The translations under genes were made by a program, and so were the position numbers. A stretch of DNA of 64,000 nt from a candidate division FCPU426 bacterium (lineage in GTDB: Bacteria; Oederibacteriota; Muellerivitia; Muellerivitales; Muellerivitaceae): NCBI GenBank assembly GCA_963738405.1, contig CAVTWJ010000023.1, positions 160,001-224,000 on the forward strand, written 5' to 3'. This document shows, one piece after another, positions 5,878-47,022 of the stretch. The notes below the pieces were generated by a model, which was not told where the DNA came from, ran no database searches, and saw only the letters and a program-made list of their open reading frames with translations. How positions within the stretch are numbered: position 1 is the first letter of the stretch; each line of letters begins with the position of its first letter.

Positions 5878-7026
5878 TTAAAGGTATTTCATAACGGTCG
5901 CCTGCCAGTTGGCACTTCCATCAAAAAAGGCAACATAAGTTTTCCCATTACTAACAAAAAGCGACGGGAAATTAGCCCCACCCTGTGTAAGAGCTCCACC
6001 ACCAAGAGCGAACCAGGCGCTCCCATTGAATTGCATTACCACTAGTTGATTATTTGAATTGATGTAGGCCAGGCTGGGGATGCCGTTGTATACAAAGAAA
6101 GAGGAGTTTCCAAAACCAATCGAGGTGGAAGTGAAACCTGGGATTCCGACCGTAACCCATGAGGTTCCAGTCCATTTCATAACGGTGGCGTTGCCGCCAT
6201 GTGCGGGATCGCTGAAGGCGACGAAAGGAACCCCATTGGAAGTTGAAAGGTAAAGAGCCACATCCTGGGTTGTCGCGAAGCCGGGGGTTCCAAGGTTGCT
6301 CCAGGTGCCCCCATTGAAGCTCATGACCGTGATGTTTCCAGAGGCGTCGGTATAGGCCACGCAGGTCATGCCGTTGGCGGCGCTGATCGCCGGGAAATAG
6401 GGAGGCGGGGTGAAATCCGGATTTCCCACAACAGCGCAGGAGCCTCCCTGGCACATTGTGACGGTGCCAGCGAAGCTGCTCATGGCGTCCCCGCTAAATT
6501 CGAGGAGTGCCCCGTTAAAAAAAGTGTAGGGCGGCTCGGACCCCTCGTAAAAACCGCCCACGGGCGTCTGGGACAATCCCTGCCAACCGCTTCCAGAGGT
6601 ATAGTCCGCGAGAAATAGATCAACGCCGTTGGAGGAAAAATACTCAACATAGGGGATGCCGTTATTAACGAACATTTGCGGCACGATATCAGTGGGATAG
6701 CAAAAGCCGAAATCGGGGCTGCCCACGTTTCCCCAGCTGGTTCCATTGAATTTTTCCACGGTGATGGAAACCCCATTGTCGGCCAAAGCCAGGTAGGGGG
6801 TGGTGTTATCCACAAAGAGCGATAGAAAGGAATTCGCGGGGCCGGAAAGTGACGTAAGGCCCTTTTGACCCACGACCGACCAGTTCGCGGCGGAAGGCAA
6901 TGGATTAGTTGGAAAAATGCCCCGACAGCCCCAGATACCAAGAACCATCCCGCCGATGATGACCGCGTATATCCAAGATGATTTTTTCCACGGCATGCGG
7001 GTTCCCTTAGCGGAAAGTCGGTTCAT
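5878..7026 (-). CDS. Putative lipoprotein with about 7 W-x-x-(V/L)-G-x-P-(G/D)-F repeats (beta-propeller-like)
   Basis: Lipobox-like IWGC after a hydrophobic stretch; repeats WSVVGQKGL, WGNVGSPDF, WQGLSQTPV, CAVVGNPDF, WSNLGTPGF, WVTVGIPGF, WFALGGGAL. Start may be 6996. Confidence 0.75.
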   Translation of the reverse strand: MNRLSAKGTRMPWKKSSWIYAVIIGGMVLGIWGCRGIFPTNPLPSAANWSVVGQKGLTSLSGPANSFLSLFVDNTTPYLALADNGVSITVEKFNGTSWGNVGSPDFGFCYPTDIVPQMFVNNGIPYVEYFSSNGVDLFLADYTSGSGWQGLSQTPVGGFYEGSEPPYTFFNGALLEFSGDAMSSFAGTVTMCQGGSCAVVGNPDFTPPPYFPAISAANGMTCVAYTDASGNITVMSFNGGTWSNLGTPGFATTQDVALYLSTSNGVPFVAFSDPAHGGNATVMKWTGTSWVTVGIPGFTSTSIGFGNSSFFVYNGIPSLAYINSNNQLVVMQFNGSAWFALGGGALTQGGANFPSLFVSNGKTYVAFFDGSANWQATVMKYL

Positions 7027-7135: not shown

Positions 7136-8467
7136 TCAACTCCCAGAAAGAGGGTCATTCACCCGGCCCATGAACAGCACAGTGTTCGAGGCGTTATCCA
7201 CGATCATGAAGATGAAAGGATGGTCCGCCACGAAGGGGATTGGGGGCGGCGGAATAAAAACCGCCTGGCAATTATTGCAACCTATTACGACCCCGGTCGC
7301 TGCGGCGGCGGTCGTTCCCTTTTCCGACACATCCACGTAGGCCTGGTGAACCACGTCCGTGATGTACAAATTATTCGTCCCGTCGATATTCCAGAAATTG
7401 GCGCCCATCATGGTCGTGGGACCAGGCGGGGTGAAGGCCAAGCTCATTCCCATGGAAGAAAGGGTATTGCTCAAATCATAGCTGGTCTTGAAGGTGAATT
7501 TCGGCAGGGCCAAATCCACCCGCGACACAGCTGTAGCGGAGGTCATGAGGGCCGAGTTAGCCGCAAGCCAGCTGTTGATGTTGTTCCCTGTCATGGCGCC
7601 CTCCAGGGCCGGCATGCCCCCTTCCGGTGGAAGGAATACGTACATGGAAGACTCACCATTCGTGTAGGGAATGGCCAGCACACTGGCTGCCCCGTTGAAA
7701 CTTCCCACGTTCGCGTTAAAAGTGATGTGCATCATGCTAACCGGCTCGGTGGTAGAGGTGGTGAGATTGAAAATCTGTTGGTTTGTATTGGTGACCGGGA
7801 ATTGGTATTGCCAGTCGCCCTTGAAATAAATAGCGTTGGTCAGCACCAGTTTTGTGTTGGAAGGGAGGGAAGAAAAAAGATCCGGAATAAACCCCGCCGT
7901 CTCCTGTGAAACCGCGCCGTTGATGGTCTGTAAGGCCGCCGTGGGGTTATTCACGAAATCCACATTGGTAACGCCCGCGTCATAATAGGTTTGAACGGTG
8001 TTGATATAAGCCTGTTGAAAGGGAAAACCCACCTGAAGCCACATGTTATCGGCCGTATCTAAGGTATAGGACTTGCCTGGAGCGTTGATTTCGTTGATCA
8101 GGGACTGGAAACCCGTCAACCTCGTCGTGGTGTTGGGGTTTAGGTTTAGGACATTCTGCATCTGGACCTGGGTGTTGCCGACCGCGCCTTCTTGGGCCAT
8201 GGCTAGACAGGTGATAATGCTGAAGGGTGAAAAAAAGATATTGCCGGATTGATTCTGATAAAAGTTATAAAGGCCGCAACCCAGCATATCGGTGGCTTGC
8301 GGAGGGGTATAAACCGCGGCGTTACTGGGAATGGGGGTGGAAACAGGACCGATGGGGCTGTTGGATAGCGGAGAAAGGGTGGTTTGAACCCGGCTGCATC
8401 CCGCGCCTCCCAAAAGGGTGAAAGTCGCCAAAACGAAACACATACCCAGCAAAAAATATTTTTTCAT
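7136..8467 (-). CDS. Serpin (serine protease inhibitor), predicted lipoprotein
   Basis: NIFFSPFSI, LVLTNAIYFKGDW, LPKFTF, hinge EKGTTAAAAT, FVADHPFIFMI, LFMGRV; lipobox GAGC. Confidence 0.95.
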   Translation of the reverse strand: MKKYFLLGMCFVLATFTLLGGAGCSRVQTTLSPLSNSPIGPVSTPIPSNAAVYTPPQATDMLGCGLYNFYQNQSGNIFFSPFSIITCLAMAQEGAVGNTQVQMQNVLNLNPNTTTRLTGFQSLINEINAPGKSYTLDTADNMWLQVGFPFQQAYINTVQTYYDAGVTNVDFVNNPTAALQTINGAVSQETAGFIPDLFSSLPSNTKLVLTNAIYFKGDWQYQFPVTNTNQQIFNLTTSTTEPVSMMHITFNANVGSFNGAASVLAIPYTNGESSMYVFLPPEGGMPALEGAMTGNNINSWLAANSALMTSATAVSRVDLALPKFTFKTSYDLSNTLSSMGMSLAFTPPGPTTMMGANFWNIDGTNNLYITDVVHQAYVDVSEKGTTAAAATGVVIGCNNCQAVFIPPPPIPFVADHPFIFMIVDNASNTVLFMGRVNDPLSGS

Positions 8468-8524
8468 GATGCTTTACTCCAAAAAACGATTTATCCCATT
8501 CATTCAGTCTCAGGAGGATTTCAA

Positions 8525-8554
8525 TGTGTAGTGATCAAAAGGGTTCTTTATTCC
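8525..8554 (-). promoter_or_regulatory. Putative ECF-sigma promoter for serpin (proximal copy)
   Basis: Minus strand reads GGAATAAA-N13-CACTACACA; same motif upstream of the ECF sigma gene. Confidence 0.6.
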
Positions 8555-8683
8555 ATGGCGGAAACAGAAAGGGGATAGTTACCCATTCAAAATCAGGCTT
8601 ATCGAGAAACCAACGTTTTCAGGCGATCCCCCCTTCAGAACAACCTTTTAGGTTTATGAAAATATTTCAACGAGGGGAATAGG

Positions 8684-8714
8684 TGTGTAGTGATTATCAA
8701 AACCGGTTTATTCC
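8684..8714 (-). promoter_or_regulatory. Putative ECF-sigma promoter for serpin (distal copy)
   Basis: Minus strand reads GGAATAAA-N14-CACTACACA. Confidence 0.55.
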
Positions 8715-8850
8715 CGTCCGAAATGGAATTTTTTATCAATGGGACTTTCCCGCCCTATTCGCATAGGCAGGCGGTAAAATGAACCGATTCGAGAATAGAA
8801 CTATAAATTATTAACCGATCATTTTTGTTTCCCAAAGGTCTTCGCCTCCC

Positions 8851-9228
8851 ATGAATCAACATTTTCCAATTAAACATTTTTCCCGCTTCCTAATCTTGAT
8901 CACCGCACTTTTTTTAGCCGTTTCCCCCGTCCCGGCCGTACAAACACCCCCCGATGGAGGTTGTTTCGTCTACCCCTCTCCGGCCTCCGGAAATCTGGCT
9001 TGGGTGGTTTACAACCTATCGGATAGCGGAACCGCCGCCATCTATATTTACAACGAGGCGGGAGACCTCATCACCCAGGAACAGGCTTCCAACTCCTCCG
9101 GCCTTCAACAGACACCCTTCGATCTCACCCATTACCAAAGCGGGGTTTATATATGCCGTGTGGTTCTTACCCTGGATTCAGGCGGCACCCAAGCGCTTAA
9201 ACTTTTCAAGTTTATCGTTATCAAATGA
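8851..9228 (+). CDS. Small secreted protein consisting of signal peptide plus one T9SS-CTD/FlgD-Ig-like domain
   Basis: Signal peptide, then FVYPSP...IYIYNEAGDLI...SGVYICRV...KFIVIK, the YPNP / IY-x-x-G / SGxY / K-hydrophobic-K pattern of type A sorting domains. Confidence 0.75.
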   Translation: MNQHFPIKHFSRFLILITALFLAVSPVPAVQTPPDGGCFVYPSPASGNLAWVVYNLSDSGTAAIYIYNEAGDLITQEQASNSSGLQQTPFDLTHYQSGVYICRVVLTLDSGGTQALKLFKFIVIK

Positions 9229-10562
9229 GGGACAGCGTCCGCAAACAATTTCGAATCTGTCTCTTTCTAGCAATAGCGGAAATCTTGTTGTGCCATTCCT
9301 CTTTTGGCCAAACGGTTTACACCACCGCCCTATCTACCAATCCCCTGGAAAATCTGGGCCATTCACCCCGAGCTTCGGCCATGGGAAACGCCTTCACGGC
9401 GATGGACGGCGACGCGGCCTGCCTTTTTTACAATCCCGCAGGATTGAACAACCTGTCGGAAACCCAATTATCCCTGGTTCACCAATCCTGGATTGCAGGG
9501 ATGTCGCAGGAAACCATGCTGGCGGGGGTTCCCACGGGATCCTTCGGGGCCTTTGCCGCAGGCGTCAATTACCTTAGCTACGGCATCCTGGATGGCTATG
9601 ACGCCACCGGTACCTCTACTTCCCCGCTGATCCCCTTTAGAGGCTCGCTCTCCTTGGGATGGGGCGGCCCAATGACCCGCAGTCTTTCGCTGGGGCTTGC
9701 CGCCCGCGGCCTTATTCAATCGCTCACGGCTTCCAACTCCAGTTTTTCCTCTTCCGTGCAAGCCGGCGCGCTTTGGACCTTTCCGCCCAATTTAAGACTT
9801 GGCGTGACTTACGATTTTTTGAATAACAATAACTCGTCCAAGTTCGGCGTCTTGACGCTCGGCATTTCCGGTTCCGTTCCCATCTTTTTTAAAATTCCTA
9901 CCCTATTGCTTGCCAACTATACCCTTCCCCTTTATTCCGTTTCCGAAATTCAATTTGGCGCGGAACAACACTTTCTCAATATCCTCTGCGCCCGTTTAGG
10001 CTACCAATGGGAAATTGACGATAACCAGATTACCGGCTTCAGGGGATTCACCGCCGGATTGGGATTCGAAATGGGGGATTTCTCTCTTGATTACAGTTAC
10101 GTTCCCGACGGTGATCTGGGCGACTCCCAGATGGTCGGCCTCAGCTATCGTTTCCCCGGAGAAAAACCGGCCCTCCATGCCACTTCCCTCACGCCCCTTC
10201 CCCCAGCCTCCACCCCGACTCCCTCATCCCAGCTCAACTTTAACCCACCGGCCCAAGTGTCCCCCGCAGACAAGGTGGTTAGGGTAGAAACCCGCTTCCA
10301 GATACCCGATACGGACAGCGCCCCCGCTTCGGAAGCCTACACCCCGGAACTCCGAAAAAATCTGGCGGCGGCGGGTATTAAGGTCGAGCAAAACCCAAAG
10401 GATTTTCAGGCCTGGATGGATCTGGGCAACCTCTATTGGCGTTTGGGCCAGGCGGATTACACCGTACAATGTTTCCAGGAAGCCCTTCATTTACAGCCTG
10501 AAAACGGGGCTTTAAAGGCCTGGTTGGACCATTATTTGAAGCTCCACCCCGGCAGGGAATAA
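9225..10562 (+). CDS. PorV/PorQ-like (FadL-fold) outer-membrane beta-barrel with Pro-rich linker and C-terminal TPR
   Basis: Signature SPRASAMGNAFTAMDGDAACLFYNPAGL, amphipathic strands ending GLSYRF, then TPR-like AWMDLGNLYWRLGQADYTVQCFQEALHLQPEN. ATGA-coupled to the upstream gene. Confidence 0.8.
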   Translation: MRDSVRKQFRICLFLAIAEILLCHSSFGQTVYTTALSTNPLENLGHSPRASAMGNAFTAMDGDAACLFYNPAGLNNLSETQLSLVHQSWIAGMSQETMLAGVPTGSFGAFAAGVNYLSYGILDGYDATGTSTSPLIPFRGSLSLGWGGPMTRSLSLGLAARGLIQSLTASNSSFSSSVQAGALWTFPPNLRLGVTYDFLNNNNSSKFGVLTLGISGSVPIFFKIPTLLLANYTLPLYSVSEIQFGAEQHFLNILCARLGYQWEIDDNQITGFRGFTAGLGFEMGDFSLDYSYVPDGDLGDSQMVGLSYRFPGEKPALHATSLTPLPPASTPTPSSQLNFNPPAQVSPADKVVRVETRFQIPDTDSAPASEAYTPELRKNLAAAGIKVEQNPKDFQAWMDLGNLYWRLGQADYTVQCFQEALHLQPENGALKAWLDHYLKLHPGRE

Positions 10563-10585
10563 ACCTTTTTCCTGAACACTATACC
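10556..10585 (+). promoter_or_regulatory. Putative autoregulatory ECF promoter of the sigma gene
   Basis: GGAATAAA-N13-CACTATACC ending 12 nt before the sigma ATG. Confidence 0.6.
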
Positions 10586-10597
10586 TGCGAGGAAGTA

Positions 10598-11170
10598 ATG
10601 CCCGACGAAAGGGAGCTGGTAAAAAAAATACTCGCGGGCAATGTGGAGGTGCAGACTTTTTTCTACCGGGAAAACGCCCGGCGCCTCTTCCACATCTGCA
10701 TCCACTTCCTGGGCCCGGAGGACGACGAGGCGGATGACATCGTCCAGCAAACCTTCCTCATCGCGCTGGAAAAACTGGGGACCTTCGAGTTCCGGTCGAG
10801 CCTCTACACCTGGCTTTCCAACATCTGCGCGAACCTTTGCTACGAAAGGCTGAGGCGTAAAAAAAAGGTCCTGGCTTCCCTGGAAGAAGAGTTGGAACAG
10901 CTGATGGTCCCGCCCCCCGGCACCACGCCGGATACGGAGATAGACGAGGATGAAAAAAAGGCCCGGCTGGCCCTTTTGGAGCGGTTGGTTCAATCCATGA
11001 GCGAAAGATGCCGACAGGTGCTGGAACTTCGGGATAAACGGGGAGAAAGTTACATCCATATTTCAAAGGCTTTGAAAATACCATTGGGAACGGTGATGTC
11101 CCAATTGGCCCGCTGCCGCAAGGCATTGGGAAATCTCTTCAAGAATGAATGGAACGGGAGCGGATTGTGA
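10598..11170 (+). CDS. ECF RNA polymerase sigma factor
   Basis: Region 2 EADDIVQQTF...FEFRSSLYTWL; region 4 SYIHISKALKIPLGTVMSQLARCRKAL; 190 aa. Confidence 0.93.
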   Translation: MPDERELVKKILAGNVEVQTFFYRENARRLFHICIHFLGPEDDEADDIVQQTFLIALEKLGTFEFRSSLYTWLSNICANLCYERLRRKKKVLASLEEELEQLMVPPPGTTPDTEIDEDEKKARLALLERLVQSMSERCRQVLELRDKRGESYIHISKALKIPLGTVMSQLARCRKALGNLFKNEWNGSGL

Positions 11171-11958
11171 AGGAACTGGTGGAAGATTACTTTAAGCGGG
11201 ATTTGAACCCCGAGGAAGAAGAGCGGCTGGGCAAATGGTTGGCTTCTTCCTCTGAAGGTTCCCAACGCTTGATCGAGTTGGCGGAAAACCATTTCCGTCA
11301 ACTGGGCGTTCAGGAACCCGATTGGCAAGAAGGCCCCTTGCCTTCCTATTTCCCGAAATCCCGCAGCCGTTTTCTTTTGGTCGCCCTTTGCGCCCTTATT
11401 ACCTGCGTGCTGGCTCTGCTGGGTTATTCCGCCATCCGCCGGTTCGGTTTGAAACCCACACCCGCTTCGTCCGTCCTCGAAACCAAAACCAATGTCGCGC
11501 CCAATCAACCCCTTACCTCTTCCACCTCCCAAAAGCAGGCGGTCAGCAAAAAACAGGAAGTCCCGGAAGATTCGTCCCGCGCATCCACTTCCGCGCCGTC
11601 TCTATCAACTGAAAAGGCGTCTCTCCATACCTTGCCGAGTGGAACGGCCGCAAATAACCCTTCATCCGTCCCTCCCGCCCTGGCGCCGCCTTCAACGGCC
11701 CAAGGAAAGCTCTACGAAGAACTTTCCGTCGTGGTCGAGACCGCCCATCCAGGCCTCGCCACCGTTAGGGTCTTGAACGATCAGAACAAGGTAATCCGCC
11801 TTCTCTATGCGGGCATCTTAGCGCCCGGGCAACGAACCTTTACTTGGGATGGAAAAGACGACAATGGAATAGTAGCTTCTGCGGGGATTTATTACCTGGA
11901 GGTAAATTCAGGAGCTAAAGTCATGCGACAAGAAGTGCGTGTGGGGCAAACTCCCTGA
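11149..11958 (+). CDS. Putative membrane anti-sigma factor with C-terminal FlgD-Ig/CTD-like domain
   Basis: Overlaps the sigma 3' end; N-terminal anti-sigma-like helices (YFKRDLNPEEEERLGKWL), one TM, S/T/P linker, then VRVLNDQNKVIRLL...FTWDGKDDNGIVASAGIYYLEV. Confidence 0.75.
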   Translation: MERERIVKELVEDYFKRDLNPEEEERLGKWLASSSEGSQRLIELAENHFRQLGVQEPDWQEGPLPSYFPKSRSRFLLVALCALITCVLALLGYSAIRRFGLKPTPASSVLETKTNVAPNQPLTSSTSQKQAVSKKQEVPEDSSRASTSAPSLSTEKASLHTLPSGTAANNPSSVPPALAPPSTAQGKLYEELSVVVETAHPGLATVRVLNDQNKVIRLLYAGILAPGQRTFTWDGKDDNGIVASAGIYYLEVNSGAKVMRQEVRVGQTP

Positions 11959-11979
11959 TTTAAAACTCATTGGGTGTCA

Positions 11980-12345
11980 TTACGAAATGGCTTCGTATTT
12001 GCGTTTGCCCGCCGAATAAGAAATAACCATCCGGGCGTCCGATTCGCCCAAATTTTTGAACCCGTGGGCTGAACCCGCCGGGGACAAAACCGAGTCCCCC
12101 GCGTTTAATATGATTCTTTCCTTCTCCAGCGAAACTTCCACCCTTCCCTCGGCGATGTAAATGAGCTCATGGCAATTGGAGTGGGCGTGCACGGGTGTTT
12201 TTTTCCCGCCCTTGATGGTCATCACCGCCACGCTGATTCCGACACCCGGCACGAGGCTGTCATCCACCAGCCATTCGGTACTGCCCCAATCTTCCTCGGT
12301 CAATTTGGGGCGCAAAGGGTGGATCGAATTGAAATGAAGACGCAT
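11980..12345 (-). CDS. Cupin domain protein
   Basis: PVHAHSNCHELIYIAEG and PAGSAHGFKN metal-binding cupin motifs. Confidence 0.9.
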   Translation of the reverse strand: MRLHFNSIHPLRPKLTEEDWGSTEWLVDDSLVPGVGISVAVMTIKGGKKTPVHAHSNCHELIYIAEGRVEVSLEKERIILNAGDSVLSPAGSAHGFKNLGESDARMVISYSAGKRKYEAIS

Positions 12346-12425
12346 GGAAAACCTTTTAAATGAAATTGGGGTTTCTAATTTCTGTTAAACTCTACCCCGT
12401 TACAATCCCTATTCCAGAGACATCG

Positions 12426-30857: not shown

Positions 30858-32063
30858 CTAGAACAGATATAGATCCAGGGAAAACCTTAAATCAAAGCCT
30901 GTGTAATCAATGGCGGCATAGTCCCCATTGCCCTGACCCAGGCTTTGGCTGGACTGAACCCCCAGCGTGCCGTTTCGCAAAACTGCCAGGGCCGCCGTGG
31001 TTCCAACCGCCTGGTTGGTGGCGCTTCCCTGAACCTGGGGAATCTTGGCATAACGAAACCTGCCGGAAAGTTCCAGACCCACTTCTCTCGTCACGAACCA
31101 CTCGTTTCCTACCCCTAAGGCGCAGCCCAAAGCCCCGCCGGTAAACTGTCCCACCACCGGGTTCATGGGATCGGCCTGGTAATACCTTACCTGAGTAAAA
31201 TAATATCCGACCCCGCCCATGGCGAACAAACGGCTTTTGCCGCTTGTCAAATTTCGGTAATAGTTCAAATCCAAAGCGTAGGTGTCGGGAGTCACCGACT
31301 GAATCAGATTGGCGTTTGAGGAAACCACCGTAACTTGGTAACCCTCGCCGCCTAAATAATCCAACCCCACGGAAAACACATTCGCCTCATCCAGGTTGCA
31401 TCCCCCTTCCAACCCCAGTTCGACTCCCGTATTGCGGGCGGTGGCCAAGCCATTGGAGGTTCCGATACCTGAGGATTTATTCCAAGACTGAGCCCCCGAT
31501 TCCAGGTCCGACATGTTGGCGAAACCGAAGCTGGAATTTAATTTGAGCCAAACCGGAAAACGGGGACCTGAGGGTTTATGGGATACATAGGATGGATAGG
31601 GCATGGCGTAACCGGAAACTTGGGCCAAGAGATCGGTGGAAACGATCACGGCTTGCGGATGGGCATAGCCGTATTCGACCGTCTCAAGGGGCTGCAAGGA
31701 AAAGGAAGAAGTTAGGGAGGAGGACGAGAACTGCAGTTTCTTGAAATTATTGAGAAGTCCCGGATTGTTGGGATTAATCTTTAAGCTTTCCTGATAGGCC
31801 CCCATCGCGGCGTCCCTTTGCTGAAGGACAAAATAGCAGTTACCGATCATGTGGTAGGTTTTCCAGGAGTCCAGGTTTTCATCGGCGGCTAAATAGAAAT
31901 GGTGGAGGGCTTCCTGGTACTTGCCTAACTGGTAAAGATGAAAGCCCGTTTCATATTCCAAGGCTCCGGACTTTTCAGGAGCGCCAAAACAAGGCGAACC
32001 TATGAATAGGCATGGGACCATGAGCCATAACCGCCAAAGGTGTTTGGGAGATGAAAAGATCAA
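30858..32063 (-). CDS. TPR-containing protein with C-terminal outer-membrane beta-barrel
   Basis: Signal peptide, TPRs (YQLGKYQEALHHF, IGNCYFVLQQRDAAMGAYQESLKINPNN), amphipathic strands ending LDLYLF. Start uncertain. Confidence 0.7.
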   Translation of the reverse strand: MIFSSPKHLWRLWLMVPCLFIGSPCFGAPEKSGALEYETGFHLYQLGKYQEALHHFYLAADENLDSWKTYHMIGNCYFVLQQRDAAMGAYQESLKINPNNPGLLNNFKKLQFSSSSLTSSFSLQPLETVEYGYAHPQAVIVSTDLLAQVSGYAMPYPSYVSHKPSGPRFPVWLKLNSSFGFANMSDLESGAQSWNKSSGIGTSNGLATARNTGVELGLEGGCNLDEANVFSVGLDYLGGEGYQVTVVSSNANLIQSVTPDTYALDLNYYRNLTSGKSRLFAMGGVGYYFTQVRYYQADPMNPVVGQFTGGALGCALGVGNEWFVTREVGLELSGRFRYAKIPQVQGSATNQAVGTTAALAVLRNGTLGVQSSQSLGQGNGDYAAIDYTGFDLRFSLDLYLF

Positions 32064-46389: not shown

Positions 46390-47022
46390 TCAGGGAATCT
46401 CGGTTTTGGAACTGGCCTGGTAGGTTTTCTTTTTCACGTTGATGTCGATGAAGCAAAGATAAATGCCGGGCGGCATGGGCCGGTTTTCCTCATCCTTCGC
46501 GTCCCAGCGAAAGGTGTGGGAACCCTGGGTCAGGTAGTCGGGGCTGTCGGTTTTATTAAACTCAAAATCCCTCGCAAGCCTGAAACCCGATGTGTAAATC
46601 TTGAGGAACACGCTTTCGGCGGGGATATTCACGCCCCAATCGAAGCTGATTTTTCCCTCGGCATCAGGCTTGGGGGAAACCTTAAACTCGAATACCCCCG
46701 GTGTAGGTGTGTAGGTAGGAGTTAGGGTAGAAGTTCGAGTAGAGGTTTGGGTGGGGGAGGAAGTGACCGTTGGGCTCAGGGTGACGGTTTTCGTGAAAGT
46801 GGGAGTAGCGGATGGCGATTGAGTGCCGGTGATGGTCGCCGTCGGGGTATTGGTTGGACTGGGGATGATGGTGGGGGTTAGGGTAGCCGTGGGGGTCACG
46901 GTGGGCGCCAGGGTGATAACAGGTTTTAAGACCAAGGGGGTGGGAGTCGGCTGATTTTGGGCGAAAACTAATTGGGCCGCAAAAAACAAAACGAATGAAC
47001 CTGTGATTCCAATGTATTTCAC
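46390..47022 (-). CDS. Secreted protein: Thr/Pro-rich linker plus FlgD-Ig/CTD-like domain
   Basis: Signal peptide, about 80 aa of (T/S)PT repeats, then LKIYTSGFRL...FRWDAKDEENRPMPPGIY. Confidence 0.78.
   Translation of the reverse strand: MKYIGITGSFVLFFAAQLVFAQNQPTPTPLVLKPVITLAPTVTPTATLTPTIIPSPTNTPTATITGTQSPSATPTFTKTVTLSPTVTSSPTQTSTRTSTLTPTYTPTPGVFEFKVSPKPDAEGKISFDWGVNIPAESVFLKIYTSGFRLARDFEFNKTDSPDYLTQGSHTFRWDAKDEENRPMPPGIYLCFIDINVKKKTYQASSKTEIP

Follow-up and report, generated by a model that had tools for sequence, protein, structure and literature searches.

The locus consists of four plus-strand genes in the window, i.e., the whole stretch of 64,000 nucleotides that was analyzed. The host is a soil bacterium of an uncultured lineage. 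In order, the genes encode a CTD-only protein (gene 1, 8851–9228, 125-aa ORF), a PorV/PorQ-family outer-membrane barrel with a TPR tail (gene 2, 9225–10562, 445 aa), an ECF (group 4) sigma factor (gene 3, 10598–11170, 190 aa), and a predicted single-pass anti-sigma factor (gene 4, 11149–11958, 269 aa). An earlier note on this DNA had described four tightly linked plus-strand genes, and the ORF positions were exactly as given there. The ATGA overlap of genes 1 and 2 at 9225–9228 was likewise found. The overlap of 22 nt described for the sigma and anti-sigma genes is present if the latter starts at ATG 11149, but the alternative start GTG 11167 gives a 4-nt GTGA overlap. Because of this GTGA overlap, and because the GTG start aligns exactly with the N-termini of three paralogous anti-sigmas of the same genome, GTG 11167 is probably the true start. 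Genes 3 and 4 are thus coupled in translation. The unit is flanked by a divergent serpin gene (7136–8467, minus strand, 443 aa; PF00079 Serpin, E 6e-102) and by a convergent cupin gene (11980–12345, minus strand; ORF and domain call). Downstream of the serpin gene, on the same strand, lies orf382 (5878–7026), which encodes a 382-aa secreted protein without Pfam family.

The domain calls of genes 1–4 all exceeded the curated cut-offs. Gene 1 matched PF18962 Por_Secre_tail (33.5 bits, cut-off 27) and TIGR04183 (31.6 bits, cut-off 23), in agreement with its earlier description as a signal peptide plus a CTD-like Ig domain only. The signal peptide, with likely cleavage after A29, precedes the CTD, and the mature product of ~96 aa is essentially nothing but a T9SS type-A-like CTD. 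Its identity to the CTDs of paralogous PA14-CBM9-CTD proteins is 37% and 33%, and small orthologs of 118–161 aa occur in 14 loci. Gene 2 matched the NF033709 PorV/PorQ family (102.4 bits, cut-off 90), and its best PDB matches in Foldseek were the PorV chains 8gl6_F (E 6.5e-12) and 6h3i_F (E 9.3e-11), which upholds the reading of this gene as a PorV/PorQ-like barrel. The domain search of gene 2 gave no Plug or TonB_dep_Rec match. In the structural model (pLDDT 85.8), the barrel at residues 81–309 (9465–10151) is followed by a disordered linker (residues 310–372) and a four-helix TPR-like tail at residues 374–440 (10344–10544), which was assigned to the periplasm. The TPR part noticed earlier is therefore seen in the model, but it is short (~two repeats), and single-repeat TPR Pfam models fell just below cut-off for the window copy (TPR_1, 25.8 vs 27.8); the paralogs scored above the cut-offs.

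Gene 3 matched Sigma70_r2 (45.3 bits), Sigma70_r4_2 (31.2 bits), and TIGR02937 (78.1 bits, cut-off 42.9), as expected of the ECF sigma factor that it had been taken for. The model of gene 4 comprises three cytoplasmic N-terminal helices (residues 2–51), one TM helix (residues 72–98), a disordered S/T/P-rich linker of ~95 aa (residues 99–192), and a beta-sandwich at residues 193–265 (11725–11943), which corresponds to a periplasmic FlgD-type Ig domain. The single TM segment and the long S/T/P linker of the earlier description are thus both reproduced. The N-terminal domain superimposed on the MucA cytoplasmic domain (8z6g_A) with Z 7.4 and an rmsd of 2.0 over 55 residues, a level of agreement that small helical bundles can also show by chance. 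The domain search of gene 4 gave no FecR domain. The MucA-like N-domain, the N-in single-TM topology expected of an anti-sigma, and coupling to a sigma gene in 68 of the 70 units surveyed (see below) together predict that gene 4 encodes an anti-sigma factor.

By sequence, the C-terminal domain of gene 4 is a FlgD-type Ig domain (PF13860 FlgD_ig, 40.2 bits, cut-off 27, residues 204–254; FlgD 7eh9_A, E 1e-10), and profile searches of gene 4 gave no match to any CTD model. FlgD equivalog models stayed far below cut-off (31.3 vs 230). By structure (VIA), FlgD (Z 8.7) and the PorU T9SS CTD (Z 8.3) matched about equally well, with further matches to PorZ (Z 6.8), the mirolase CTD (Z 6.7), and the NucA CTD (Z 6.5). 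The name T9SS-CTD/FlgD-like, given to this domain before, is accordingly borne out for FlgD by sequence, but for the CTD by structure alone. Aligned with hhalign, the Ig domain proved remotely homologous to the module CTD (probability 68%, E 4.8e-5). Across the host genome, the FlgD_ig and Por_Secre_tail models match many of the same cargo tails. Fusions of a barrel with OmpA in this genome also use FlgD_ig as their periplasmic spacer, and the domain may thus be generic.

Conservation was surveyed in 70 anti-sigma units from 30 related genomes, where a unit was counted as complete when sigma, anti-sigma, barrel, and CTD/lectin genes occurred on one strand within 4.5 kb. Complete units made up 54 of the 70, and the window's own arrangement recurs at 14 loci in 12 genomes of 8 genera. 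Gene order varies among the units (CVSA, SALV, SAVC, and SACV), and linkage that is kept through such permutation suggests that the association itself is under selection. This conserved co-occurrence supports the four genes as a conserved functional unit, and the domain and fold assignments held in the HMM and Foldseek checks. The window sigma, the sigmas of 13–14 small-CTD units, and that of the C9 pair of the host genome form one clade (SH-aLRT 97). Of the sigma/anti-sigma pairs of this family, the host genome has exactly four, three of which adjoin a CTD protein and a TPR-tailed barrel. The barrel gene always has a gene for a protein with a T9SS-type CTD at its side, and sister units carry a PA14+CBM9+CTD lectin in place of the CTD-only protein. 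No barrel or CTD gene was found near the sigma/anti-sigma pair in 6 of 62 units, nor in L156, L157, and the C9 pair, and thus an Ig-ended anti-sigma can exist without an adjacent barrel. Searches of the host for T9SS components did not detect PorK/L/M or PorU and thus give no support to a canonical T9SS translocon context.

The TPR tail is present, on a tether of ~60 aa, in 49 of 53 module barrels, and three of the four barrels without it are cut by the end of the locus or contig. In the host genome, each of the five PorV-like barrels with a TPR tail has a membrane transducer as its neighbor: three anti-sigmas, one HAMP histidine kinase with an OmpR-type regulator, and one sCache-HAMP-SpoIIE protein (PP2C phosphatase). 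In contrast, none of the 13 barrels with other tails (fn3, FlgD_ig+OmpA) or without a tail has such a neighbor. The kinase and phosphatase variants share the front end of cargo and TPR-tailed barrel, and their periplasmic parts are not CTD-like. CTD cargo genes that adjoin a cognate PorV-like barrel gene, with no regulator nearby, are common in this genome.

An ECF-type motif, GGAATAAA-N13-17-CACTA, was found upstream of the sigma genes of this family. Of 63 sigma upstream regions, 36 matched it strictly (spacer of 14 or 15 in 34 of these), and 41 carried a -35 block with at least 8 of 9 matches. The candidate promoter of the window sigma gene, GGAATAAA-N13-CACTA at 10556–10581 (plus strand), is the best hit in the genome (PWM 29.7), this site having belonged to the training set of the PWM. 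It is located in the 35-nt stretch between the barrel and sigma genes and overlaps the stop codon of the former. Two further candidate sites point toward the serpin gene on the minus strand: a distal one at 8688–8714 (PWM 22.3; outside the training set) and a proximal one at 8529–8554 (PWM 19.5), whose -10 block precedes the start codon of the serpin gene by ~60 nt. The window contains 7 PWM hits of at least 14, compared to 1.5 expected from shuffles, and 10 of the 14 orthologous loci have one or two divergent sites. Outside the training sites, 56 hits of at least 17 were found in 68 loci, compared to 4–8 in shuffles. Genome-wide, there were 4 hits and 0 in the shuffled genome; two of the four precede GH30/59-like and GH43 CTD enzymes that adjoin the paralogous C14 unit.

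These sites, as far as sequence can tell, predict that the serpin, a secreted or lipoprotein-like protein, is an output of the unit; a serpin homolog also lies within the related unit L094, directly after a motif site. A second possible output is orf382, whose homolog is the divergent, motif-preceded neighbor in the orthologous locus L057. The lectin and barrel genes of SALV units are inside the sigma-driven operon, and for this reason the barrel/CTD genes could be regulon members, not sensors; in the window, no ECF motif precedes genes 1 and 2 themselves, the best score being 5.9.

With moderate confidence, we interpret the unit as a trans-envelope signaling system, a TonB-independent analogue of Fec built from T9SS-type parts. 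Such a unit would probably allow surface sensing of some kind, with neighboring genes for secreted proteins switched on in response. At the cell surface, the cognate barrel would hold the CTD protein, in the way that PorV does with CTDs, or let it pass through. Whether this barrel/CTD pair is ligand bound, occupied, or empty would be signaled via the periplasmic TPR tail to the Ig domain of the anti-sigma, which would then release the sigma factor. The freed sigma would use the promoter at 10556 to transcribe its own operon, and those at 8714 and 8554 for the divergent serpin gene and possibly orf382. Against this reading, the kinase and phosphatase variants have other periplasmic domains, so that the binding partner of the TPR tail would not be the Ig domain specifically.

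The contact between the anti-sigma Ig domain and the barrel protein was modeled in a three-chain job (Ig domain, CTD-only protein, and TPR-tailed barrel). With its custom alignments this job lies outside the predictor's calibration, and it gave an ipSAE of 0.58 (runs 0.61, 0.56, and 0.58), compared to 0.00 for the best of three controls. When the barrel-TPR chain alone was replaced and the other two were kept, ipSAE dropped to 0.00. At least 77% of the contacts agreed between runs, with a partner pLDDT of at least 81. In the calibration on 157 solved complexes and 215 mismatched pairs, 116 of the former and 2 of the latter reached the mark; scores of 0.60 or under comprised 18 of the 157 complexes and both passing mismatches. 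The model thus weakly suggests that the Ig domain docks on the barrel-TPR protein, its chain taken whole.

An unlikely alternative is that the CTD, be it gene 1 or the lectin's tail, is itself, before its export, the periplasmic ligand of the anti-sigma domain or of the TPR tail, and that the barrel removes it by export, so that sigma activity reports export flux or backlog. In excerpts of PMC12152298 and PMC7712824, the PorA CTD of Porphyromonas gingivalis binds PorV and is also sufficient, acting from the periplasm, to switch on PorY-PorX-SigP. The reduction of gene 1 to a signal peptide and a CTD, kept in 14 other loci, fits a CTD-only function, and Ig-Ig pairing is conceivable between the remotely homologous Ig domain and module CTD. 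However, a soluble CTD ligand alone leaves the conserved TPR tail and the three transducer classes unexplained, and the docking predicted for the Ig domain was lost when the barrel-TPR chain was replaced. Moreover, the PA14+CBM9 lectins of sister units driving glycoside-hydrolase genes point to an external cue and not to secretion state, against the earlier proposal that sigma activity reports secretion or envelope state.

It is more doubtful still that the ECF sigma and anti-sigma are a local regulator of a general envelope cue, with the CTD/barrel pair merely co-regulated or co-inherited. Such a regulator would agree with the many regulator-free cargo/barrel pairs of this genome, with the sigma/anti-sigma-only units, and with the lectin and barrel genes in the sigma-driven operon of SALV units. 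It is at odds with linkage that persists through permutation in 54 of 70 units, with the confinement of the TPR tail to transducer-adjoining barrels (5/5 vs 0/13), with motif-less window-type genes 1–2 beside motif-bearing outputs, and with the weak docking support.

The earlier note had proposed that the anti-sigma engages the barrel or translocon through a domain that mimics a cargo CTD, with the CTD-only protein as competitor or ligand. In the form weighed here, the domain would occupy the CTD-binding site, for which the CTD-only protein would compete. Of this, the engagement of the barrel agrees with the weak docking prediction, but mimicry is not needed because a tethered TPR tail can meet a tethered Ig domain in the periplasm. 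In the solved translocon structures 8gl6 and 6h3i, the CTD reportedly touches PorV on its outer face. Mimicry is very improbable: the structural likeness to T9SS CTDs, the cargo tails shared by the FlgD_ig and Por_Secre_tail models, and a linker that could span the periplasm all fit it, but the domain is FlgD-type by sequence, an inner-membrane-tethered domain would need to cross the outer membrane to reach that face, the kinase and phosphatase variants have no CTD-like periplasmic domain, and the conserved TPR tail offers a simpler contact.

Under the preferred reading of trans-envelope signaling through the TPR tail, the closest known system is PorA-PorV-PorXY-SigP of P. gingivalis. According to excerpts of PMC7712824 and PMC12152298, PorA is a small type-A CTD protein that binds the PorV barrel, and its CTD binds the sensor PorY in the periplasm and so controls the ECF sigma SigP from that side; PorA itself also has a lectin-like domain. 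PorA is thus a precedent for a small CTD protein feeding ECF signaling. As far as these excerpts describe it, the PorA route uses a two-component system with an orphan sigma and acts on T9SS components, whereas the window unit has its own single-pass anti-sigma and, as predicted outputs, neighboring secreted-protein genes. Unlike PorV, the window barrel, a dedicated paralog, has a TPR tail in the periplasm. The parts form one operon-like unit, with several copies per genome, and the host, with PorK/L/M/U undetected, is outside Bacteroidota.

Fec-type signaling runs from the TonB-dependent transducer FecA through the anti-sigma FecR to the ECF sigma FecI, and polysaccharide utilization loci (PULs) of Bacteroidota have SusC-like/anti-sigma/ECF regulators. 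The proposed route, from a barrel with a periplasmic extension through the C-domain of a single-pass anti-sigma to an ECF sigma and adjacent genes, resembles these, and, like a PUL, the sister unit with the lectin drives glycoside hydrolases. In contrast, the window barrel is PorV/FadL-like and not a TonB-dependent receptor, its extension is a C-terminal TPR tail instead of an N-terminal signaling domain, the anti-sigma has no FecR domain, and the surface part is a separate CTD-tagged protein. The anti-sigma C-domain shares a sequence motif and fold with the FlgD hook-cap (PDB 7eh9, 7bhq, 3osv), but the Ig domain alone is common to both, gene 4 being a predicted membrane-anchored anti-sigma and not a flagellar cap. 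Among T9SS cargo/barrel pairs, type B CTD proteins pair with PorP/SprF-like proteins in the excerpted text of PMC9143113, and there, as throughout this genome, a CTD cargo gene adjoins the gene of its own barrel partner. Unlike those pairs, the barrels of this genome belong to the PorV/PorQ family, their CTDs are type-A-like or FlgD_ig-like, and a subset of the pairs has acquired TPR tails and regulators.

The four genes form a discrete block on the plus strand, because a divergent serpin gene (7136–8467, minus strand) and a convergent cupin gene (11980–12345, minus strand) bound it on both sides. The open reading frames were located at 8851–9228 for gene 1 (CTD-only protein, 125 aa), 9225–10562 for gene 2 (barrel-TPR, 445 aa), 10598–11170 for gene 3 (ECF sigma factor, 190 aa) and 11149–11958 for gene 4 (anti-sigma factor, 269 aa), at the positions that the earlier note had read for all four. 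The ATGA overlap that it described between genes 1 and 2 is also present in the sequence. Its 22-nt overlap of the sigma and anti-sigma genes exists if the ATG at 11149 is used; the likelier start of gene 4 is the GTG at 11167, as this start creates a GTGA overlap and agrees with where the paralogous proteins begin.

Gene 1 begins with a signal peptide, read directly from the sequence, and continues as a T9SS type-A-like sorting domain (TIGR04183, 31.6 bits, cut-off 23; PF18962, 33.5 bits, cut-off 27). With both models over their cut-offs, the description of gene 1 as a signal peptide plus a CTD-type domain holds. This CTD shares 37% and 33% identity with those of the PA14+CBM9+CTD lectins encoded on contigs C14 and C11 of the same genome. 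Decay from a lectin gene was considered as the origin of gene 1 and ruled out, as the signal-peptide-plus-CTD form of 118–161 aa is kept in 14 other loci.

The product of gene 2 belongs to the PorV/PorQ family (NF033709, 102.4 bits, cut-off 90). The best PDB matches to its fold were the PorV chains of the T9SS translocon (8gl6_F, E 6.5e-12; 6h3i_F, E 9.3e-11), with FadL/TodX ranking lower. It is a member neither of PorV proper (NF033710, 46.1 bits, cut-off 250) nor of PorQ proper (NF033711, 83.6 bits, cut-off 220), and it differs from both by its TPR tail, which they lack. The model (pLDDT 85.8) comprises a barrel (residues 81–309), a disordered linker (310–372) and a four-helix TPR-like tail (374–440), and the proposed PorV-like barrel with TPR was thus recovered in family, fold and tail. 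The tail is found on 49 of 53 module barrels; of the four exceptions, three are cut short at the end of the locus or contig.

Gene 3 encodes a group 4 (ECF) sigma factor (Sigma70_r2, 45.3 bits; Sigma70_r4_2, 31.2 bits; TIGR02937, 78.1 bits, cut-off 42.9) in which no region 3 was matched. Gene 4 has the architecture of a single-pass anti-sigma factor, with coupling to a sigma gene, a helical N-domain and one transmembrane segment; a sigma gene adjoins the anti-sigma gene in 68 of 70 units. Its model shows three helices (residues 2–51), a transmembrane helix (72–98), a disordered linker of ~95 aa and a beta-sandwich (193–265). By sequence, this sandwich is a FlgD-type Ig domain (FlgD 7eh9_A, E 1e-10; PF13860, 40.2 bits, cut-off 27), and by structure it is about equally close to FlgD (3osv_A, Z 8.7) and to the PorU CTD (6za2_B, Z 8.3), in agreement with the FlgD-Ig/CTD-like ending assigned to it earlier. 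Profile-profile comparison of the Ig domain with the module CTDs gave a probability of 68% (E 4.8e-5). Gene 4 is not a FlgD hook-cap protein, the best such model (NF005176, 31.3 bits, cut-off 230) matching the Ig domain only. The ESM Atlas held no match to gene 4 at 0.9 or above, and the CHU_C, Por_Secre_tail and zf-HC2 clusters at 0.82–0.88 serve as leads only.

The modelled N-domain of gene 4 bears a suggestive likeness to the sigma-binding domain of MucA: it aligned with the MucA cytoplasmic domain of AlgU-MucA (8z6g_A) over 55 residues with Z 7.4 and rmsd 2.0, which is within the chance range of small helical bundles. The values for RsiW (5wuq_C; Z 7.2, rmsd 12.9) are likewise within the range of unrelated small helical bundles. 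No Pfam match to the N-domain was obtained at E <= 1, and no sequence match in the PDB. Elsewhere in the window, a 210-aa ORF at 46390–47022 (minus strand), flanked by isopropylmalate/isocitrate dehydrogenase and aspartate-semialdehyde dehydrogenase genes, matched FlgD_ig at 22.3 bits (cut-off 27); it lies outside the anti-sigma family.

With HMMs built from the window proteins, four sigma/anti-sigma pairs of this family and no more were detected in the genome, and three of them adjoin a CTD protein and a barrel-TPR. The gene order is CTD-only protein, barrel, sigma, anti-sigma in the window and sigma, anti-sigma, PA14+CBM9+CTD lectin, barrel-TPR in the C14 and C11 units. The fourth pair (G000:C9:89041–90347; L011:3041–4347) has no adjacent barrel or CTD gene, yet falls in the small-CTD sigma clade. 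Its partners may have been lost, or those of another unit may serve it in trans.

All of 24 other genomes from the same taxonomic family matched the anti-sigma profile, mostly at full length and in several copies, and a search across 99 genomes of the phylum gave matches in all 30 further members of that family. Outside the family, among the matches listed for the 99 genomes, full-length ones came from a single genome, G069, which belongs to a second family. As far as these sequence searches reach, the four-gene module appears to be confined to this family and a single additional genome within the uncultured candidate phylum. Of the sequencing runs listed, only two, both soil-metagenome DNA, contained small shares, and no RNA run was among them. 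In G069, a sigma/anti-sigma pair (L156, on G069:C2; 7663–9971) is followed by two barrel-less proteins of 347 and 330 aa that match the TPR-tail model only and may be a split form of the barrel-TPR.

Loci of ±7 kb were fetched around 60 places, namely all near-full-length anti-sigma matches listed for the 24 genomes and a few whose halves were listed separately, and 8 more were added later; matches to the C-terminal Ig domain alone were excluded. The four-gene co-occurrence expected from the earlier note was borne out: 54 of 70 anti-sigma units were complete (48 of 62, then 6 of 8), with sigma, anti-sigma, barrel and CTD or lectin genes on one strand within 4.5 kb. Among the 16 incomplete units, several are cut by a contig end or contain a very large cargo gene that places the barrel more than 4.5 kb away. 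Among the first 62 units, with C for the CTD protein, L for the lectin, V for the barrel, S for sigma and A for anti-sigma, the orders were CVSA (19), SALV (11), SAVC (10), SACV (6), SA (6) and others (10). The small CTD-only protein (118–161 aa) is encoded in 14 of the 19 CVSA units, from 12 genomes and 8 genera. In a quick IQ-TREE maximum-likelihood tree, the sigma clade of the window (SH-aLRT 97) had 15 rows, comprising 14 small-CTD units, the window included, and the C9 pair; one small-CTD unit (L100) fell outside it. The anti-sigma architecture recurred in 262 representative clusters at E <= 1e-30. Of the best 150 of these 262 clusters, 137 were single-stretch proteins of 201–300 aa covering nearly the whole profile, 11 were multi-repeat proteins longer than 1200 aa, and 2 matched in two stretches.

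A motif, GGAATAAA-N14-15-CACTA, lies 38–105 nt upstream of most sigma genes. At least 8 of 9 matches to its -35 block were found in 41 of 63 sigma upstream regions, and 36 of the 63 passed a strict two-block test. Across the whole genome, the motif matrix, itself built from these sigma-upstream sites, gave 4 matches versus 0 in a shuffled genome. Matrix matches marked candidate promoters of the window sigma gene (10556, plus strand, overlapping the barrel stop codon) and of the C14 sigma gene, and candidate sites directly before two other C14 genes, which encode a GH30/59-like+malectin+CBM3 protein and a GH43+CBM6+malectin+CBM3 protein. The window contained 7 motif matches at a score of at least 14 versus 1.5 expected; the best untrained ones were two candidate sites at 8714 and 8554 (minus strand), both aimed at the serpin gene. 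Upstream of gene 1, on its own strand, nothing comparable was found (best motif score 5.9), and a sigma-70 consensus scan of 8300–12400 was uninformative (1 site versus 2.9 expected). A further motif match at 31483 (minus strand, score 20.3) lies inside the 401-aa TPR-protein ORF 30858–32063 and may be a chance match or an internal promoter.

The same pattern was seen in the orthologous small-CTD loci, where the motif occupied the barrel-sigma gap in 13 of 14 and one or two divergent sites preceded the opposite-strand neighbor in 10 of 14. These divergent neighbors differ by locus (NHL propeller, orf382 homolog, unknowns). In the lectin-type loci, the motif again followed the barrel gene immediately in 10 of 13 cases, and in 3 of 3 further loci. 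In total, 56 untrained matches at a score of at least 17 were counted in 68 loci (876 kb) versus 4–8 in shuffles. The serpin as a conserved output was ruled out, with serpin homologs in 2 of 60 fetched loci (L094 and L080). In L094 (G001:C21, from another genome; 574–6901), a serpin gene lies between the anti-sigma and CTD protein genes, directly after a motif site, and two more serpin fragments follow downstream. Therefore, serpins recur as candidate outputs within this genus.

The genome (3.18 Mb, 23 contigs, 90.66% complete) gave 21 match pieces to the PorV-family model, which were interpreted as 18 PorV/PorQ-family barrel genes. Their C-terminal extensions are TPR in 5, fn3 in 3, FlgD_ig+OmpA in 2, and none or unknown in 8. 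A membrane signal transducer directly adjoins all 5 TPR-tailed barrels of this one genome and none of the other 13. Three of the five stand beside anti-sigma/ECF pairs. The fourth, on C13, is preceded by a 400-aa protein without a Pfam family and has a HAMP histidine kinase and an OmpR-type regulator downstream; the fifth, at C11:44708, is followed by an sCache-HAMP-SpoIIE phosphatase. The nearest transducer candidates among the 13 are a cyclase two genes off one barrel and a FecR-domain protein three genes off another. Since the count comes from related barrels of one genome, it is an indication and not a statistical test.

Complex prediction was run on the barrel-TPR and the CTD-only protein, both in mature form, together with the anti-sigma Ig domain, which was the partner that was scored. 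The Ig domain scored 0.58 (runs 0.61, 0.56 and 0.58) against 0.00 for the best of 3 controls, in a three-chain job with custom alignments that is outside the calibration of the tool and returned its output without an interface. The runs shared at least 77% of contacts, and the pLDDT of the partner was at least 81. Of 157 solved complexes, 116 reach the calibration mark, as do 2 of 215 mismatched pairs; only 18 of these solved complexes, and both of the passing mismatches, reach it with scores of 0.60 or less. By the verdict of the tool, the prediction lends weak support to docking of the Ig domain on the barrel-TPR protein. The predicted contact depends on the barrel-TPR, because replacement of this chain alone lowered the score to 0.00.

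Anatomy, linkage, the association of TPR tails with transducers and the promoter pattern fit a trans-envelope signaling unit that controls neighboring secreted-protein genes. Its elements would be an outer-membrane barrel with a tethered periplasmic domain, the CTD-tagged partner of this barrel, and an inner-membrane anti-sigma factor with a tethered periplasmic domain of its own. We favor a relay from the TPR tail to the Ig domain, a reading about as apt to be right as wrong. A PorA-like role of the CTD protein, as a ligand acting in the periplasm, is unlikely; it has a precedent in PorA itself, and the Ig domain with the CTD-only chain but without the cognate barrel-TPR scored 0.00, which by the rule of the tool is no evidence against Ig/CTD-only binding. 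Mere co-location of the parts is somewhat less probable again. The proposal of the earlier note, that the Ig domain engages the barrel or translocon as a mimic of a cargo CTD with the CTD-only protein as competitor or ligand, shares the structural likeness to the PorU CTD and the predicted dependence on the barrel-TPR, and we consider it very improbable for a domain that is FlgD-type by sequence.

Beyond the TPR-to-Ig relay in this module, PorV-like barrels with tethered periplasmic TPR tails could make up a general class, so far undescribed, of signal transducers in the outer membrane, a proposal to which we give somewhat less than an even chance. If it is true, a T9SS-type CTD protein (lectin or bare CTD) and its private barrel would be a plug-in surface sensor, which evolution has connected to no fewer than three kinds of output at the inner membrane, namely ECF/anti-sigma, histidine kinase and PP2C partner-switching. 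It would also be a TonB-independent counterpart of cell-surface signaling and would point to a way for PorA-type signals to get to the inner membrane.

To our knowledge, trans-envelope ECF signaling has been described almost only for TonB-dependent transducers, and we know of one case, PorA, in which a T9SS-type CTD protein communicates with a regulator, by a path across the periplasm that is still under study. The unit would work similarly to Fec-type cell-surface signaling but is not a member, as gene 2 lacks Plug/TonB_dep_Rec and gene 4 lacks FecR at E <= 1. By analogy, the closest described relative in logic is PorA-PorV-PorY-PorX-SigP. Passages of PMC7712824 and PMC12152298 describe that the PorA-type small CTD protein binds PorV and that its CTD activates the sensor from the periplasm. 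The window unit does not belong to the PorA-PorXY-SigP system either, since it has no kinase or response regulator and carries an anti-sigma factor in that place; a kinase-coupled sister unit is present elsewhere in the genome (L150). In the literature searched, neither the coupling of an anti-sigma/ECF pair with a PorV-like barrel nor anti-sigma factors ending in FlgD_ig were described, and the main text and one supplement of the ECF re-classification paper do not contain the terms FlgD, PorV, Por_Secre or TPR. As far as this literature extends, the unit is a novel form of trans-envelope ECF signaling. By wiring CTD protein, PorV-like barrel, anti-sigma factor and ECF sigma factor firmly together in a compact module that is present in multiple copies, with clear candidate promoters and output genes, it offers a directly testable model of surface-to-sigma signaling via a non-TonB barrel. 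It also suggests a candidate function for many unexplained PorV/PorQ paralogs and FlgD_ig-ended small membrane proteins of uncultured soil lineages, and a route to predicting the secreted enzymes and inhibitors that these bacteria switch on at surface cues.

Canonical T9SS export uses SprA/Sov with PorK/L/M/N, and the PorU sortase cuts off the CTD. In this 90.66% complete genome, a SprA-like frame of 1973 aa was matched in four pieces (104.6, 69.8, 44.5 and 31.1 bits), each below the 200-bit cut-off; the PorU model matched CTD tails only, and the GldK model had no match. GldM and GldL gave no match either, and these blanks are weak because their controls matched nowhere. TIGR04183 has 30 matches in the genome, of which 24 exceed the cut-off, and FlgD_ig has 34. 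Many PorV/PorQ-family barrel genes lie directly downstream of a gene for CTD-tailed or FlgD_ig-tailed cargo. Large cargo genes with such a tail have their own barrel gene directly behind them in very many cases, examples being C19:32790/31672, C22:9094/8168, C11:44442/44825 and C5:39410/38389. With PorK/L/M and PorU undetected, these pairs may represent a one-cargo-one-barrel scheme of export or anchoring distinct from the canonical T9SS.

Two PorV-like barrels are fused to a C-terminal FlgD_ig and an OmpA peptidoglycan-binding domain (C5:59132–60877, L146:9132–10877; C5:10219–12654, L151:4219–6654). Outer-membrane proteins of this organism therefore also employ FlgD_ig as a periplasmic spacer or adaptor. 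Flagellar genes are present as well, and a flagellar cluster includes two PorV-like barrels (G000:C1:185503–189220; L149:4503–8220), one of 719 aa and one of 522 aa that has an fn3 tail, between a FapA/sigma-28-like region on one side and FlgF/FlgG/FlgA genes on the other.
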